A stretch of DNA of 26,985 nucleotides from the IMG/VR virus record IMGVR_UViG_2579779007_000002. One strand, written 5' to 3'. This document shows positions 8,096 through 26,040 of the stretch, piece after piece. A program made the position numbers and the translations under genes. The first letter of the stretch is position 1, and each line of letters starts with the position of its first letter. The notes below the pieces were generated by a model. The model did not search any database. It saw nothing but the letters and a program-made list of their open reading frames with translations, and was not told where the DNA came from. The DNA is from a virus (Duplodnaviria > Heunggongvirae > Uroviricota > Caudoviricetes).

Positions 8096-9447
8096 TTATT
8101 CACCTCCACATGCCCCTCCAGTACGTCAATCATCCCGTCAGCAATCGCGGCTTCAAGCGACTGTGCAGATACGCGGCTGATACTGACCAGCACATCCGCA
8201 CGGTCATTCTGTCTGCCGACTGTCTGTGATGTTCTGACCACAATCCGGGCCATGCCGTCACGGGTTGCCACGACATACAGCAACTGGTGGTTCTCCCTGT
8301 CCCACAATACCGCCTGTGGTTTTGCCATCAGCGACGGCAGACGCTGTAAATCCTCCGGTTTCAGGGCGGCATCAGCAGTGGTCGCCAGACTTTTCCCGTT
8401 CATCACAAGCAGACGGGCTGGCATATTCCCGGTGCGCTGATGTACGGCTTCAGCTACCGATTCCGTCATAAAACCCAGTGCCCGGATTTCATGACCGGTC
8501 TGACGTGATCCTGCCAGGCGTTTAAGCCAGAGGGAAAAAGCAAGCTGACGCTCCCGGCTGTTATTCAGCGTCTGCACAACCTGCTCACGCAACTGCGCGT
8601 CGCGAATTTCCACCAGTTTTCGAATCAGTGCCTGATCCGTACCAAACGCCGCCGAACCCGGGTTATATGACCAGCCCACATCCGGCGTCATTTTTACCCG
8701 ACCGTTGTCAAACGTGGTTGACGATGTGCGGAAAATCTCTCCGGTGCTTTCATCCGTACCGGCATCCACTTCGCGGGTATTCATGAATGACGCACCATAA
8801 CTGACCTGTAGCCCCAGTTCTTTCATGCGGGCCGCAGACAGCGCCCGGACGCGACAGCGGCAGTTCCAGCCATTGGGCGGGTAATGCGTCTGCCAGAAAA
8901 TGTCGTCATACCTGAAAACCATATTGTGCAGCCGCGCATGTTCCGGGCGTGTTCTGCCATCCATAACGGCAACGTACTGCCAGTACGGGTACAAATCGGC
9001 GGTATTCATCATCTGCGCATAACGTCCTGCCCCATACGCCGTACGGGTATTGACGTTATAAATGGTTGCCAGACGACGCGGACTACCCAGCTCGATTACC
9101 TTTGCGTTTCCCTCTGCATCCACGATGATTTGTTTTCCCCACCATCCGAGTTTTTGCAGCCGGGGGGCCAGTGTGCGGGTAAATTCCTCACGGGTGATGC
9201 CTTCACTGACAGCCCGCTCCACTTCCTCACGGATTGTGGTCAGTACATCCATCCGGGTGGCTTTGGCAACGGTAAAGGCGCGTGCGTGCGCGTCTGCCAG
9301 TTGTTCGTACCAGTTCCAGGTGATGTTGTAGCCTTTGGCGCGGAAATACGCGACAGCCTCCTTTGGCGGGAGGCGTGCGGCATACGCCAGATCAATGGTC
9401 TGCTGCGGCATCCAGACGCCCCCATATATCGGCAACAAAAATGGCAC
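8092..9447 (-). CDS. F: head morphogenesis protein (Mu F-like)
   Basis: 451 aa ORF downstream of portal; true start may be the internal Met at 9411, since 9447 overlaps portal by 56 nt. Confidence 0.8.
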   Translation of the reverse strand: MPFLLPIYGGVWMPQQTIDLAYAARLPPKEAVAYFRAKGYNITWNWYEQLADAHARAFTVAKATRMDVLTTIREEVERAVSEGITREEFTRTLAPRLQKLGWWGKQIIVDAEGNAKVIELGSPRRLATIYNVNTRTAYGAGRYAQMMNTADLYPYWQYVAVMDGRTRPEHARLHNMVFRYDDIFWQTHYPPNGWNCRCRVRALSAARMKELGLQVSYGASFMNTREVDAGTDESTGEIFRTSSTTFDNGRVKMTPDVGWSYNPGSAAFGTDQALIRKLVEIRDAQLREQVVQTLNNSRERQLAFSLWLKRLAGSRQTGHEIRALGFMTESVAEAVHQRTGNMPARLLVMNGKSLATTADAALKPEDLQRLPSLMAKPQAVLWDRENHQLLYVVATRDGMARIVVRTSQTVGRQNDRADVLVSISRVSAQSLEAAIADGMIDVLEGHVEVNK

Positions 9448-10930
9448 GGGTCAGCATGTCGATAAGTTCTGCATCATCCATCTGCGGATATAATGAAGCG
9501 GCTTTGTTCATGGCGGCTTCCGGGCCATCTTTCAGCACAGAAAAAATGACGGGTTTCAGCAGGGGGTCAACCGAACGCTGCCAGTCTTCCGGTGAGACGC
9601 CCATCCGGTCGATATCATCCTCCTGCGGGATATCTTCAGCGGATAATGCGGCCTCTTTCTGCGAACCGTTATCCGGGACAACCGGTTGTACAGTAAACAC
9701 GGCTTCATCACCGACCGGCTGTGGAATATGAAGTTTTTCCTGTATCCAGGAGACCGGAATACGCATTCCCGCCGCCAGTTTCGGAATGGCGTCAGACAGT
9801 GCCGTAATATCACCCGCTTCACTGGTATCAAATACAATGCCCGGCAGGCGGTTAATATCAATGGTGCTGTCACTGTTCAGTGCCAGCAGGGGATAAATCA
9901 GGTCACGGTTAATACTGCGGGCAAGCTGGCCCACATCCGCATTACGGATTTCCCGGCGAACCTCATCATGCACTTCACCCAGCGACCGCGCACCTTTATC
10001 GCCAGCCTCTGTGGTCAGGGTGCCGCCCAGAATGGCTTTTGAAATCGCTTTTTCTGCCCAGCCAATCATCGCCATAAAAGGGTCTGACTGACCATCTGCG
10101 GCGCTCTGAAAATCCAGCGTCATCCCCATCGGAATAATGCCACCGGCACGTCGCCCGATATCCATCACGGCCTGCATCAGCGTGGCTTTCTCGCGGTTCG
10201 TTGAGCCGGTCGGATATTTACCGACGCGCATGGGGAGTCCGTAAATTTCCAGAAACTCTGCAAAATCACGCACGGAATAGTTTTTAAAAATAAAAGGCCA
10301 GATAAGCGTGCGCACAAGGCCATTGGTGCCGACATACCCGGTGCGGGATTTGGCCCGGTGCATAAACCAGCCGAACGGTTGCAGCTCCAGCCCGTGATAA
10401 GACGCATCACGCAGGCGTAATTCGTTCAGATTGTCGGGGTTCGCGCAGAACAGCGCCGGATCGCGATGATGCAGCGCCACCGGCACGCGCATTTTCCCCA
10501 GCCAGCCCCATTCAATCTCCTGCATGGAATAACCCTTGAGAATGGCATCACCGGCATCAAACAGGGCATCTTCAAACCACGCCGCATCATGCAGATATTC
10601 ATTCAGCATGTCGGCGTCTTTTTTCTCCTGTGCGCTGGCATCACGTGCCGGAGCGATGCGCCATTCCAGCGCCTGAATGGCAAGGCGGCGCTTGCTCAGT
10701 TCGGAAAAAAGGTGGGTGTCCTTTTCTTCCATATCAAAGGCCAGGTCAGCCTGTGCTGTCAGATCACCGCGTTCGGCATCACGCAGCATCTGCGCGGCCC
10801 GGTTCGGCGTCACACCACTGGAAGGATGCTCCTGCGTGCGCTTCATGACCATTGCCAGCTCATCGCTGCGGGTCTGCATTTCATCGTCAAAATCAAACGG
10901 CTGCCCGGAAATATCCAGAATACGGCCCAT
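9392..10930 (-). CDS. H: portal protein
   Basis: 512 aa ORF immediately after the large terminase with a 1-nt overlap; size and position of Mu portal. Confidence 0.85.
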   Translation of the reverse strand: MGRILDISGQPFDFDDEMQTRSDELAMVMKRTQEHPSSGVTPNRAAQMLRDAERGDLTAQADLAFDMEEKDTHLFSELSKRRLAIQALEWRIAPARDASAQEKKDADMLNEYLHDAAWFEDALFDAGDAILKGYSMQEIEWGWLGKMRVPVALHHRDPALFCANPDNLNELRLRDASYHGLELQPFGWFMHRAKSRTGYVGTNGLVRTLIWPFIFKNYSVRDFAEFLEIYGLPMRVGKYPTGSTNREKATLMQAVMDIGRRAGGIIPMGMTLDFQSAADGQSDPFMAMIGWAEKAISKAILGGTLTTEAGDKGARSLGEVHDEVRREIRNADVGQLARSINRDLIYPLLALNSDSTIDINRLPGIVFDTSEAGDITALSDAIPKLAAGMRIPVSWIQEKLHIPQPVGDEAVFTVQPVVPDNGSQKEAALSAEDIPQEDDIDRMGVSPEDWQRSVDPLLKPVIFSVLKDGPEAAMNKAASLYPQMDDAELIDMLTRAIFVADIWGRLDAAADH

Positions 10931-21764: not shown

Positions 21765-22703
21765 TTAATTACGCAGCAGCGTTGAAATATCAACGTCCAG
21801 GTCTAATTCACGGAAAGCCTGACGCAGATAATCTTCGTTAACACGCTCACCTTTACCGTGAGCCGTCATGGCTGCAAGGCGAAGTGAATGATTCAGAATG
21901 CGAAGCGCACCTGGTTTCTGCGCAATCTGCTGTAATAACTCCAGTTCTTTTTCGCCGTTAATCTGCCAGGCATCCGCAATAGCTTTTACATCGGCTTTTT
22001 TGGTTTTATTAATTGCAGTGCGCTTTGCAATACGGGAAAACAGACGGGCAAATTCAACCGTTCTGTTACCCCCCGTCATATTTGAATAAACCCGGTGATT
22101 TCCCATCAGCACAAGGCCAATACGGGTTGATTCCTGTAACAGGCGGAGTTCTTCCAGAACTTCGGCACCAAGATGATCAGCTTCGTCGATGATAACCAGC
22201 CCCTGTGTACCTTCAAGGCGACGTCGCAGGGCGCGGGAGAGCGGCCCTTTACGGCGTGGTGCGTCATTCATTCCCAGCTCAAACGCCAGTTCAGTAAGAC
22301 ATTCCAGAACGCTGGCACAGGATGGCGTAATGGTGATCATCCAGACATTGTTATTGGTGCGGCGATATTCACGGGCCGCTTCGGTTTTGCCCACACCAGG
22401 ATTGCCACATACAACAGCAATACTTTCAGTCAGGCTGGCAAAACGCATACTTGTCCAGATTTGTTTTACCGTCTGCGTTTCCACAAAGCGGGGCGGTTCA
22501 GGTAGTTCTGCAACTACATGATATTTTTCCAGCCAGCGTTGCAGCATTTGTGAAACACGCTCGTTATCCCCGTTGTACTTATCATTGATAAAACTACTGA
22601 TAGTTCCGGTAGAAAGTCCGCTCTCAAGAGCAATTTGTTTAAAGGTGGTTTCTTCATTTTCTACAAGCGTGCGCAGTCCTGCGCGAATATCGGAAATATT
22701 CAT
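21765..22703 (-). CDS. B: transposition ATPase / target DNA activator B
   Basis: 312 aa, same length as Mu B; P-loop GNPGVGKT and DEAD-like IIDEAD motifs; N-terminal helix-turn-helix. Confidence 0.9.
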   Translation of the reverse strand: MNISDIRAGLRTLVENEETTFKQIALESGLSTGTISSFINDKYNGDNERVSQMLQRWLEKYHVVAELPEPPRFVETQTVKQIWTSMRFASLTESIAVVCGNPGVGKTEAAREYRRTNNNVWMITITPSCASVLECLTELAFELGMNDAPRRKGPLSRALRRRLEGTQGLVIIDEADHLGAEVLEELRLLQESTRIGLVLMGNHRVYSNMTGGNRTVEFARLFSRIAKRTAINKTKKADVKAIADAWQINGEKELELLQQIAQKPGALRILNHSLRLAAMTAHGKGERVNEDYLRQAFRELDLDVDISTLLRN

Positions 22704-22741: not shown

Positions 22742-24835
22742 TTAAATGGCTTTTTTACGTCTGTTCTGTTCCAGAATATCCAGCGAATGATTCAGATATT
22801 CATCACGCTCAGTTTCGTATTCATCATCATGCACTTCCTCACACCTCAACGGCTGAACGGTCACCACATTACCAACAGGGCGATAAACATTATCCAGCCA
22901 GGGTTCTGTCGTTTTTTGTTCAATAACCTGAATACCTTCATCCTCAGCATCACGTATTTTTTCCTCAGCACGCTTGCGCATTCCTTTAATACGCTGCTGT
23001 TGTTTGTGATATTCAGCCGTAACAGGAAAGGCTGCGCGTTTATTGCCGTTCCATATCGCCTCACAGATAAAGCTACCGTCCTTACGGCGTACCGTAATTC
23101 GCTCGGCATCGTGAATGTCATAGCTGATAAGTACCTTGCGACCATGTTCATCACGTAGCTCTGGCGCGTAGTAAATATTGTTCAGCCACTGGATTTCGCA
23201 GCGTCTTACCGGACGCTCCACCATCGGGCGGAACATGTCACGCAGCTCAATATCACTCAGCCACTCAATTTCAGTGTCTTCTTCCGCTAAGCGTTTTTTT
23301 CTGAACTCTACCGGGCTGTAATGTTTTCCGTTTGGTTTCATCGGCAATTCAGAATGTGGGCGGTTGTTGTACCACTCCACCCCCTCACGGATAGCCTCAA
23401 TCAGTTCTGACCAGGACGGCAGCTCGCGCATTGCGGCTTTCTGACGGGCGCTCAGTGGCTTGTCCTGTTGCAGGGCATTAAACGCTGAACGCAGATCACG
23501 ATTAAGTATTCGCAACGATTCCCGGTCAGCCCCCTTGCCGAAATAGGTGCGATACCTCCTTGCTATACGCATCGGTAACGTCCGGTTCAGGCGCTCAATA
23601 ATGCCGCGTCCCTGCGGATTTCCCGCAATACCGGTGGGGTGGTTAATCCCCAGGCGGGGCAGAATCCCGACGATCTCTTTATCCAGCATATCTGCCGTTT
23701 CACCGGAACCATTATCCGAGTAATACAGGAATGGTTTTCCGTGATTGCGAATGCCGTGTTGTATCGCCCCGGCAACAGCGAACACGTTCTCCGCAAGATC
23801 AAGACTCCAGCCAACCACAAACCGGGTTCCACCGTCGATCACAAACGTAACTTCCGGTGAAAATGGACGCCCGTGAACCGGATGCGCACATTTCAGCTTC
23901 ATACCGTGACCGTCACCAATCCAGACATAATTCACCGGCATAGCTGTCCAGTCGCGGCGGGTGAATCCTTCAAGCTGACGGTATTCACTGCCGGTAACGC
24001 GCCCTTTTTGTTTCACCACTTCCGGCAGTTTTTTCATGGCATACCGGACAACATCATAGGAAGGCATCACCTCCAGCATGTATGGTTCGTCCGCATGGCG
24101 ACGCTGCCAATCAGCGACAAAATCCTCGTAGGCTTCTGACATAGGCCTGCCGTTAGCCTGACGATACTGCGCCAGAAATTCAGGCAGCCAGCTAATTTCT
24201 TCCGGTTTTATTTCGTCGCGCTTTCCTGGTGCCAGTAACAGCAATCGTTCTGCGGCATTCTGTGCTTTGTTAAACGCAGCTATCCAACGTTTGAGCGTAA
24301 TTGCGCTCAGAGTTCGCTCTTTCCCTTTACGGGCATTAGCAGTAATGACCAAAGATTCCAGGCGTTCTTCCAGGTTACCCTGAGCTAACCGCGACACAAT
24401 AAAACGTATAGCGCTGGCACAACTGAATCCCGGCTCCTGGCTAATTCGTAGAACTTCACAGACAAGAGCAATACGCGCTTCTGCAACTTTACGTTGATTT
24501 TCCGTAAGCGCATTCAGACGCTCTTCTACCAATTGTGGCGAACCGCGATATGCCTCAACAGGCTGTACAACATTTTGTTTGCGTTCACGCTTTACAGGAG
24601 GCTGGGTAGTTATCTCCTGCGGGGCGGTTGCCATCAGTTGAGCTACATGGCGCTCACGTAACGCCCGTTGTGTAACCGGAGGGAGGCAGTCGATGCTGTA
24701 TTCAATGGTTTTTGAACCCGCACGTTTGCGCCTGAAATGCTCAGATGAGGCCAGTTTCCTTATGGAATACCGCACCCCTTGCGCAGTTCCCGGCATACCT
24801 GGTAGCCCTACAAGCTCATTAACTGACACAAACAT
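22742..24835 (-). CDS. A: DDE transposase A (MuA-type)
   Basis: 697 aa; C-terminal end ...ERDEYLNHSLDILEQNRRKKAI matches my recollection of Mu A; N-terminal domain is Mu-type winged helix but divergent in sequence. Confidence 0.9.
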   Translation of the reverse strand: MFVSVNELVGLPGMPGTAQGVRYSIRKLASSEHFRRKRAGSKTIEYSIDCLPPVTQRALRERHVAQLMATAPQEITTQPPVKRERKQNVVQPVEAYRGSPQLVEERLNALTENQRKVAEARIALVCEVLRISQEPGFSCASAIRFIVSRLAQGNLEERLESLVITANARKGKERTLSAITLKRWIAAFNKAQNAAERLLLLAPGKRDEIKPEEISWLPEFLAQYRQANGRPMSEAYEDFVADWQRRHADEPYMLEVMPSYDVVRYAMKKLPEVVKQKGRVTGSEYRQLEGFTRRDWTAMPVNYVWIGDGHGMKLKCAHPVHGRPFSPEVTFVIDGGTRFVVGWSLDLAENVFAVAGAIQHGIRNHGKPFLYYSDNGSGETADMLDKEIVGILPRLGINHPTGIAGNPQGRGIIERLNRTLPMRIARRYRTYFGKGADRESLRILNRDLRSAFNALQQDKPLSARQKAAMRELPSWSELIEAIREGVEWYNNRPHSELPMKPNGKHYSPVEFRKKRLAEEDTEIEWLSDIELRDMFRPMVERPVRRCEIQWLNNIYYAPELRDEHGRKVLISYDIHDAERITVRRKDGSFICEAIWNGNKRAAFPVTAEYHKQQQRIKGMRKRAEEKIRDAEDEGIQVIEQKTTEPWLDNVYRPVGNVVTVQPLRCEEVHDDEYETERDEYLNHSLDILEQNRRKKAI

Positions 24836-24837
24836 TT

Positions 24838-25074
24838 TTATGCCACCTTACGAGCGTAACGGCTGGGCCAGATCTCCTCCGGCGCAACACCAATAGCATC
24901 AGCAATAATGCGCTCATATTTTGGGCATTTGCGGTACAGGGCATTCTTTAAAGAATCCTGGTTTAAACCGGCTTCAATGGACAGAGAGCGTAAAGTAAAA
25001 CCTTTTACATGCACCGCCGCGACAACATGCGCGGGGTGCCAGTCCTGTTTAACAACTTCATTTATAGACATCAT
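24838..25074 (-). CDS. ner: Ner-like early transcriptional regulator
   Basis: Start set at the MM pair (25074) preceded by AAGGA, giving ~78 aa; contains DWH...IIA-A....PE.IWPSRY pattern shared with Mu Ner. Track ORF extends to 25146 (102 aa). Confidence 0.7.
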   Translation of the reverse strand: MMSINEVVKQDWHPAHVVAAVHVKGFTLRSLSIEAGLNQDSLKNALYRKCPKYERIIADAIGVAPEEIWPSRYARKVA

Positions 25075-25254
25075 TCGTTTATCCTTAAAAGTTATCTGTG
25101 CGGATAACACCGCCGGATAATCTCTGCGGATAAAGTATTGATCCACATGTGGTGCATGTAAAGCAAAAATTTGATTTTCTTTTGCCTGATATGGATCGAT
25201 TGTGTTTTCTATTGAAATTATCCTTTTGCATCAATTAGATAAGAGGAAAGAAAA
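25075..25254. promoter_or_regulatory. divergent early/repressor promoter and operator region
   Basis: Three direct (G/C)CGGATAA repeats at 25100, 25113 and 25126 (13-bp phasing); inverted repeat GTTATC-n6-GATAAC at 25091-25108; IHF-like AATCAAATTTTTG (minus strand) at 25164-25176; TTGAAA-17 bp-TTAGAT upstream of the repressor start. Confidence 0.6.
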
Positions 25255-25800
25255 ATGGATAAGCTGAAAGGAAAGTCACTTTCTTTGCCAGAAGTGACAA
25301 AAGAAAGTATCCCGGAGCGTTTGAGAGAATTAATTGGAAAAAGAAGTGTAAGGGCTGCTGCGAAAGATTGGGGGTTGTCGTTTTCCACTTTAAACAATTA
25401 CCTGACGCGAGGTACTGAACCTTCACTCAGTGTGGCTCGGCAGATAGCTGCAATTGAAGGGGTTACTATCGAATGGATATGTGGATCACATGATGATTCA
25501 CATGAGAATCACCCAATTTCAACTAACACGCATAATGAGAATACAAAACTCATTATGAACATCATTAACGCCTTGGATGCAAAGGATATTGAGCGACTAT
25601 CTAAGACTCTTGCCCTCAATGGTGCTAAGTATCTGACTCAAATGTTGGAACCCGAAAATCAAGGCTTACTGCGTCTTGAAGGACGAAAACGTGTCGCCGC
25701 GCTGCTATTAGATGATTTACCTGATGAGCGTATCAGAGAGATTTTGGAAGAAATTGAGAGCAGCAAACTCTCAAGTAGTGTAAAATCGAGAGCGGGCTAG
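25255..25800 (+). CDS. prophage repressor, XRE-type helix-turn-helix
   Basis: 181 aa, divergent from ner/A/B as for Mu c; motif KDWGLSFSTLNNYLTRGTEPSLSVARQIAAIEGVTIEWI resembles Cro/cI-type helix-turn-helix rather than a Mu-type winged helix. Confidence 0.65.
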   Translation: MDKLKGKSLSLPEVTKESIPERLRELIGKRSVRAAAKDWGLSFSTLNNYLTRGTEPSLSVARQIAAIEGVTIEWICGSHDDSHENHPISTNTHNENTKLIMNIINALDAKDIERLSKTLALNGAKYLTQMLEPENQGLLRLEGRKRVAALLLDDLPDERIREILEEIESSKLSSSVKSRAG

Positions 25801-25854: not shown

Positions 25855-26040
25855 AGTAACGCGTAGTATCAAATATTTTTTCGTTTTTAGCTTTCTTTGC
25901 GATGGTAGTATCAAATCGCATGTTGTGCGCATAACACTGTTTTATGTCATAACTGTTTGTTTTATCCCATCAAATCCCGTTTAATCCACTTTCCTCCCGG
26001 ATTTTTCACCAGTATCAAATAATTTACCTCTCTATATTCA
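25855..26040. repeat. prophage left-end terminal repeats (putative transposase binding sites L3, L2, L1)
   Basis: AGTATCAAAT at 25865-25874, 25907-25916 and 26011-26020, all in one orientation; reverse complement of 25990-26010 (...AAAAATCCGGGAGGA...) resembles the Mu left end. Confidence 0.55.

Follow-up and report, generated by a model that had tools for sequence, protein, structure and literature searches.

The GATAA array at positions 25091–25134 of the window, by which we mean the whole 26,985-nucleotide stretch of viral DNA that was analyzed, is probably the operator of the phage's own Ner protein, as judged from a comparison of related loci. A preliminary description of this DNA had taken the repeats of the array as the counterpart of the operators and enhancer of phage Mu; they correspond to the Ner-binding site of Mu and D108 instead, are kept in heteroimmune relatives and track the Ner type. 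Binding by Ner itself, the stoichiometry of that binding and its effect on transcription of the repressor gene are what we infer. Most likely, the array represents an ordinary kind of switch element, of the Ner operator type, with a sequence that has not been described before, and a lineage-specific flip of one half-site is its only unusual feature.

As the preliminary description had it, the setting is an early control region, here of a Mu-like prophage: a Muvirus-like prophage, read in reverse, has its left end at the right end of the window (Table 1). The product of the ner gene matched Pfam HTH_35 (E 2.9e-25) and, among structures in the PDB, EnrR (7f9h, 3.6e-17), which is its closest solved relative, and Mu Ner (1neq, 6e-13); the same protein is annotated in RefSeq as WP_000987079.1. 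Its recognition helix appears to begin at D40 (NQDSLKNALYRK). The divergently encoded repressor, named 'XRE family transcriptional regulator' in RefSeq and giving a weak Pfam HTH_3 match (21.5 bits, under the cutoff of 23), is not a Mu-type c repressor. A few E. coli genomes contain near-identical prophages, and the Yersinia phages vB_YpM_5 and vB_YpM_6 (genus Muvirus) carry the same Ner with another repressor. The prophage ends near 26036, inside a tail-fibre-like reading frame, and appears to be a Mu-like prophage inserted in the tail-fibre gene of another prophage. The last prophage bases, ...ACCTCTCTATA, mark the divergence point of five independent insertions, and the terminal bases at ~26036 differ from the CA expected of Mu ends.

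Table 1. Features of the early control region and adjoining genes (window coordinates)
Feature	Position	Strand	Description
B gene	21765–22703	-	Open reading frame; position adjoining A
Transposase A gene	22742–24835	-	Mu-transpos_C and N-terminal HTH_Tnp_Mu_1 (I-alpha) domain (Pfam)
ner gene	24838–25074	-	Open reading frame; 78-aa Ner-family (Cro-like) regulator; ATG at 25074
ner ribosome-binding region	25079–25086	-	AAGGATAA on the ner strand; contains a further GATAA pentamer (the fifth) that keeps the phase of the array
Half-site a (GTTATC)	25091–25096	+	Left arm of the perfect palindrome GTTATC-N6-GATAAC
Repeat 1, half-site b (GCGGATAAC)	25100–25108	+	
Repeat 2, half-site c (CCGGATAAT)	25113–25121	+	Flipped form
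Repeat 3, half-site d (GCGGATAAA)	25126–25134	+	Abuts the -10 hexamer; spans the predicted transcription start
Predicted early promoter Pe	25134–25162	-	-35 TTTACA (25162–25157), 17-bp spacer, -10 AATACT (25139–25134)
Candidate repressor operator 1	25138–25155		Quasi-palindrome TGATCCAC-AT-GTGGTGCA in the Pe spacer; putative assignment
IHF-consensus match AATCAAATTTTTG	25164–25176	-	2–14 bp upstream of the Pe -35, UP-element position
Conserved purine tract	25175–25186	-	GGCAAAAGAAAA on the ner strand; family consensus AAAAGAAAG
Candidate repressor operator 2	25189–25199		ATATGGATCGA; inverted copy of GATCCACAT (25140–25148), ~50 bp away; putative assignment
Divergent repressor gene	25255–25800	+	Open reading frame; 181-aa XRE-type protein, recognition helix SFSTLNNY

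The repeats are present as originally read: three direct copies, GCGGATAA (25100–25107), CCGGATAA (25113–25120) and GCGGATAA (25126–25133), stand at an exact 13-bp period, and GTTATC (25091–25096), tgtgcg and GATAAC (25103–25108) make up a perfect 6-N6-6 inverted repeat. The motif SCGGATAA occurs eight times in the window against an expectation of 1.68, a count that none of 100 shuffles reached, with three of the copies inside 34 bp. Five GATAA/TTATC pentamers fall within 25075–25139 (0 of 5000 shuffles reached five), and the arrangement TTATC-N5-7-GATAA is found once in 27 kb where 0.05 would be expected. Because of these three counts and of the conservation described below, the repeats are not attributable to chance. 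Elsewhere in the window, one inverted pair of SCGGATAA copies, GCGGATAA (9639–9646) and TTATCCGG (9669–9676), stands 30 bp apart inside a 512-aa open reading frame (9392–10930, minus strand); this pair is probably a chance occurrence, and the copies outside the array were set aside on that ground.

A promoter scan of positions 24950–25350 returned Pe as the only sigma-70-like promoter site, and the same scan recovered the annotated Pe of Mu (TTTACA-17-TATCTT at 993–1021). A promoter-like site stands at the Pe position in many of the 25 lineages that were aligned, with CTT.A and GATCAATACT conserved. The repeats had been thought to sit over the ner promoter; this was not borne out, for the array starts directly downstream of the predicted -10 hexamer. 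It fills the transcribed leader (~+1 to +45 from the predicted start) between that hexamer and the ner ribosome-binding site, 17–60 bp before the ner ATG. In the opposite direction, no promoter facing the repressor gene reached the scan threshold within 24950–25350, and candidates picked by eye were weak; since no promoter of the repressor gene was found, any effect of the array on repressor synthesis rests on analogy. The region also holds one arm of a perfect 12-bp inverted repeat, TTTACATGCACC (25004–25015, in ner) and GGTGCATGTAAA (25151–25162, over the Pe -35), whose arms are 135 bp apart. It was rejected as a repressor operator pair on the evidence that the ner-internal arm is identical in heteroimmune relatives and agrees at 11/12 positions in L008, and it is probably coding sequence coinciding with the -35 region.

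Ner-linked loci were collected from E. coli genomes, phage records, species-representative genomes and IMG/VR. The repeats are kept in these related elements, as seen in the alignment of 25 lineages with Ner identity down to ~50%. On the ner strand, going from Pe towards ner, the leader of the 25 lineages reads TATCC, GATAAC, GTTATCC and G.TAAC, after which comes the ribosome-binding site. The GTTATCC block, which is half-site b, is the most conserved in the leader, and half-sites d (TATCC) and a (G.TAAC) take these forms in most lineages; the centres of the half-sites are 11–13 bp apart. At the ribosome-binding region, the block TTTTtAGG.TA is kept in the 25 lineages and may be conserved solely as a Shine-Dalgarno sequence. 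Thus, the proposal of operator-like repeats held with respect to the half-sites, which are conserved, but the unit that is conserved is the hexamer GATAAC and not the exact 13-bp direct phasing, which belongs to the window lineage alone.

As reconstructed from the alignment, the ancestral layout is one of four half-sites alternating in orientation. These can be read as two TTATC-N6-GATAA palindromes 24–26 bp apart or, alternatively, as a central GATAAC(AC)-N4-(GT)GTTATC palindrome with flanking sites. In relatives, half-site c reads GTGTTATC in register and forms the palindrome GATAACAC-N4-GTGTTATC with site b. Relatives have two or three inverted pairs, whereas in the window GTTATC-N6-GATAAC is a perfect pair and the other two half-sites are direct. 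The flipped form of half-site c is restricted to the window, L008/L098, L001–L005/L097 and the Edwardsiella lineage L009. By this reconstruction, three substitutions changed the ancestral GTGTTATC to GGATAATC, a flip that gave rise to the third direct CGGATAA and to the even 13-bp period, and the direct triple is accordingly a derived state. The flip is, on the same comparison, stably inherited in the E. coli, Yersinia-phage and Edwardsiella lineages, with a perfect CGGATAA match retained.

Across the loci compared, the array follows the type of Ner rather than the type of repressor. In L001–L004, where Ner is identical to that of the window and the repressor is a different protein of 194 aa, the array is kept while all sequence to the right of ~25135 differs. 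L027, from Vitreoscilla massiliensis, has an S24-peptidase cI-like repressor and is without an adjacent Mu transposase, and it carries GATAACCC twice, 13 bp apart, before a Ner of the DSLK type. Similarly, CCGATAATAC-GCGT-GTGTTATCGG is present in L146 with its different XRE recognition helix, and L006, which differs in the repressor and in the I-alpha domain and has the same Ner helix, shares an identical 20-mer, GTGTTATCCGCACAGATAAC. The reverse combination is found in L152: the repressor recognition helix is that of the window and the I-alpha domain is closely similar, the Ner helix carries D40N, S41N and K43Y, and the half-sites read TTTGATAACTAA. Lineages with the equivalent of K43R (L011, L012 and L146) have CCGATAA half-sites instead of GGATAA, possibly by a recognition rule in which a single residue specifies a single base. 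Where the Ner helix is STLANAL, STLKNAL or NTLKSAL, other repeats are found and no GATAAC array; one of these repeats, CTAAGTCA-AA-TGACTTAG, is similar to the Mu half-site. At least two GATAA/TTATC pentamers were counted in 33 of 33 upstream regions of D[ST]L[KR]-type Ner genes and in 10 of 78 regions of other Ner types, and at least two GATAAC/GTTATC hexamers in 27/33 and 3/78, respectively (Fisher 7e-17, the 33 + 78 loci being phylogenetically non-independent). A residue of EnrR that gives a base contact aligns with D40 of the window Ner.

Two side observations concern members of the family outside Mu-like phages. In L027 (2400–2480), the Ner-family gene takes the place of cro in a non-Mu-like prophage, with the S24-peptidase repressor gene divergent from it and, downstream, a gene for a 163-aa protein with no Pfam match. 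Chromosomal Ner/Nlp-like paralogues with the helix SSTLANAL (L025, L033, L036, L040, L042, L043, L057 and L083; Pectobacterium, Brenneria) have a long palindrome with TTATCC-N7-GGATAA upstream, and other paralogues with this helix have GGACTATWAGTCAC inverted repeats, so the upstream repeats of the paralogues do not simply track helix type.

Several observations weigh against Ner as the ligand of the array. The array adjoins ner, and linkage therefore explains part of their co-inheritance. The core GATAAC is unchanged even in L152, despite a quite different Ner helix. The Ner sites of Mu and D108 have inverted arms of 11–12 bp with spacers of 6–8 bp, whereas the arms here are 6–9 bp long and three of the four point in the same direction. 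The Mu/D108 Ner consensus was not seen in the array as read, whose core is GATAAC, although a match is not expected given that the Ner proteins are just 46% identical.

We also considered that the repeats might be operators of the XRE-type repressor, either as an O3-like set or as sites shared with Ner in the way that lambda cI and Cro share OR, such that their occupancy in a lysogen would block early transcription. The general region of the array is right for this, Mu O3 overlaps the Ner region, and the recognition-helix core STLNNY, common to the repressors of nearly all array-bearing Mu-like relatives, would fit a conserved half-site core; since most repressors of the relatives have that core, evidence against a repressor site coinciding or overlapping with the array comes only from L027 and L146. 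We nevertheless regard a repressor role as unlikely. The array is unchanged between phages that have different repressors and the same Ner, it persists with the S24-type repressor of L027 and the unrelated XRE helix of L146, and its flanks are changed in L152 despite a repressor recognition helix equal to that of the window. Further, the array is downstream of the -10, and the place expected for a repressor, around the Pe -35 and spacer, is bracketed in each immunity type by a repeated motif of its own, present once in the Pe spacer and once 20–57 bp upstream (in the L001 type, CTTTTGTAG occurs twice, 50 bp apart). These comparisons favor, as repressor operators, the immunity-specific pair TGATCCACA...TGTGGATCA that brackets the promoter over the array. 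This pair, with TGATCCACA at 25138–25146, is exact in L098, matches at 10/10 in L152 and is also present in L143. The motif of candidate operator 1 is common to L098, L143 and L152, whose repressor recognition helix is that of the window, and differs in heteroimmune relatives with identical Ner. It may be added that TGATCCACA is one mismatch off a DnaA box.

Other ligands fared less well. A role of the hexamers as a transposition enhancer (internal activation sequence) is highly unlikely. Such an enhancer would be recognized by the N-terminal HTH_Tnp_Mu_1 (I-alpha) domain, which the transposase does have at residues 7–78 and which is conserved in those Mu-like relatives where the array is present. 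The Mu enhancer is located in the control region, but it comprises O1-O2, upstream of Pe and not in the leader (PMC3145075). Phased GATAACCC repeats are present in L027 without an adjacent Mu transposase; moreover, L152 combines a similar I-alpha domain with other flanks, and L006 a different I-alpha domain with identical half-sites. The purine tract AAAAGAAAG, which recurs upstream of the -35 in many lineages, is a better enhancer candidate. Because the XRE repressor is non-homologous to it, the I-alpha domain cannot share sites with the repressor here. We assign a very slight probability to the hexamers being host-factor sites (DnaA boxes or Fur-type GATAAT), leader RNA structure, or a functionless repeat arising by chance or mutation. 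The best DnaA box matches, two occurrences of TTATCCGCA, are each one position off TTWTNCACA, and these were rejected in that relatives conserve only (G)TTATC(C) and not the CACA part. GATAAT is the Fur hexamer, but the best match to a Fur box has 8/19 mismatches and the hexamers, spaced 11–13 bp apart, are not contiguous. The leader RNA is able to form a hairpin; the fold z-score was -1.25, there was no Rfam match, and the half-site flips of relatives would break the pairing. Chance is excluded by the repeat, pentamer and palindrome statistics together with the conservation.

The preliminary description had also placed an IHF-like site between the repeats and the repressor-proximal promoter, mirroring the operator/IHF/enhancer layout of Mu. 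The consensus WATCAANNNNTTR is indeed matched at 25164–25176, with an A/T-rich 5' flank (AAAAGAAA), but as a bare consensus match: the window has one match against 1.05 expected, the probability by chance is ~0.03 (0.033 for at least one match in the 180-bp intergenic region), and an equivalent is absent at this position in 26/26 other lineages, including L143 and L152 with the same repressor helix. A layout of the Mu kind is possible, but it would be built from the two candidate repressor operators of Table 1, on either side of the -35 and of the A/T-rich stretch with the IHF match, and not from the GCGGATAA repeats. A perfect IHF consensus (AATCAAT....TTA) occurs 12–30 bp before the repressor start in L006, L007, L011, L111, L112, L115, L123, L127 and L134, and in Mu (L089, 947–959); near the repressor start of the window, at 25227–25240, there is only a degenerate copy (GCATCAATTAGATAAG). 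As to the purine tract, it is found upstream of the Pe -35 in many lineages regardless of immunity or Ner type, and may act as an UP element, as a bend or as a transposase enhancer site. In Mu, the I-alpha domain and the repressor recognize CTTTT-containing repeats.

Taking Ner as the ligand of the array, the switch would operate as follows. Pe would fire after induction or infection and Ner would accumulate, after which Ner monomers would bind the four GATAAC-type hexamers via the helix-turn-helix. Bound Ner would then block or obstruct RNA polymerase at and just past the start site, turning down early ner-A-B transcription, and, if the analogy with Mu applies, transcription in the direction of the repressor gene would be blocked as well, leading to commitment to lytic growth. 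EnrR, an Edwardsiella nucleoid-associated protein of the Ner family, is a monomer, and in its complex with DNA (PDB 7F9H/7F9I) two copies are bound via the helix-turn-helix on a short A/T-rich palindrome (PMC9023278); monomers on individual hexamers are plausible in light of this mode of binding. EnrR differs from the window Ner: it is a global protein that antagonizes H-NS, its consensus is TA-rich, it has an N-terminal arm for the minor groove, and it is not a phage switch protein. A bolder proposal, prompted by the flip of half-site c, which we consider quite unlikely, is that Ner acts as an orientation-independent monomer on single hexamers and not as a classical dimer on a palindrome, in a phased EnrR-like nucleoprotein array (13-bp period, ~85 degrees per step) that would wrap or bend the promoter-proximal DNA. 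Should this be true, the flipped lineages would offer a simple natural system for the rewiring of operator architecture with the protein unchanged.

The analysis provides a probable function and a consensus (GATAAC half-sites, ~GGATAACAC) for the control region of a widespread and unstudied group of Mu-like prophages, found in E. coli, Yersinia phages, Edwardsiella, Sodalis, Pseudomonas phages and others, in which a Mu-type Ner and transposase are paired with a lambda-type XRE repressor. The probable Ner sites are separated from the probable repressor sites, which is useful for the design of reporters, for prophage induction and for the prediction of immunity groups. The covariation of the Ner helix with the half-site flanks (e.g., K43R with GGATAA -> CGATAA) amounts to a small, testable recognition code for the Ner/EnrR family. 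The accepted view of how such switches work is unchanged. A literature search for a described GATAAC-type Ner site, with the primary papers on the Mu and D108 sites outside its coverage, found none and yielded only general statements on Ner and the EnrR structure paper.

Comparison with Mu was made through its 12-bp inverted repeats AGCTAGCTAAGT/ACTTAGTTAAAT, which we take to be the mapped Ner sites, and with D108 through a site presumed on the same footing; both sequences were then located in the records. In the Mu record, AGCTAGCTAAGT/ACTTAGTTAAAT lie at 1029–1058, right after Pe (annotated 991–1028) and before ner (ATG 1099), and are labelled as the Ner binding region. The Mu Ner operator thus consists of two inverted 12-bp repeats, ANYTARCTAAGT, with a 6-bp spacer, just downstream of Pe. 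The window resembles Mu in the gene layout (repressor, Pe, repeats, ner, A, B), in the placement of the repeats right after the Pe -10, in the identical -35 (TTTACA) and in the neighboring gene encoding an HTH_35 Ner. It differs in that the site sequence is unrelated (GATAAC here and CTAAGT in Mu), the conserved cores are shorter (6–9 bp), there are four half-sites and not two, three of them direct at a 13-bp period, Ner is ~46% identical to Mu Ner, and the partner repressor is of the XRE type and not of the Mu type. The D108 Ner operator, CCGTGAGCTAC-N8-GTAGCTCACGG, is an inverted repeat in the leader, 25–54 bp before ner, and so occupies the same slot as the array; it is, however, a single palindrome with 11-bp arms and another sequence, in a phage whose repressor is of the Mu type and whose transposase has an immunity-specific N-terminus. 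The D108 site shows that the site sequence is particular to the Ner type.

With respect to the O1-O3/IHF/enhancer region of Mu, a likeness may lie in the two immunity-specific sites that stand ~50 bp apart around an A/T-rich or IHF-like stretch next to Pe. O1-O3 are specific to the immunity type, overlap Pe or are upstream of it, and bind a winged-helix repressor of the Mu type that is homologous to the transposase I-alpha domain. Unlike O1-O3, the array is kept across different repressors and is downstream of the -10, and the repressor here is XRE/HTH_3-like and non-homologous to the transposase I-alpha domain (HTH_Tnp_Mu_1). A distance of ~35 bp separates the IHF site of Mu (947–959) from the Pe -35, and 18 bp separate it from the start of c, whereas the match in the window abuts the -35. 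In lambda, Cro is a small helix-turn-helix protein made from an early promoter that turns down early and repressor transcription and shares its operators with cI. The window Ner is likewise a small helix-turn-helix early protein, with the difference that the Ner sites here, as in Mu, appear to be separate from the immunity-specific sites.
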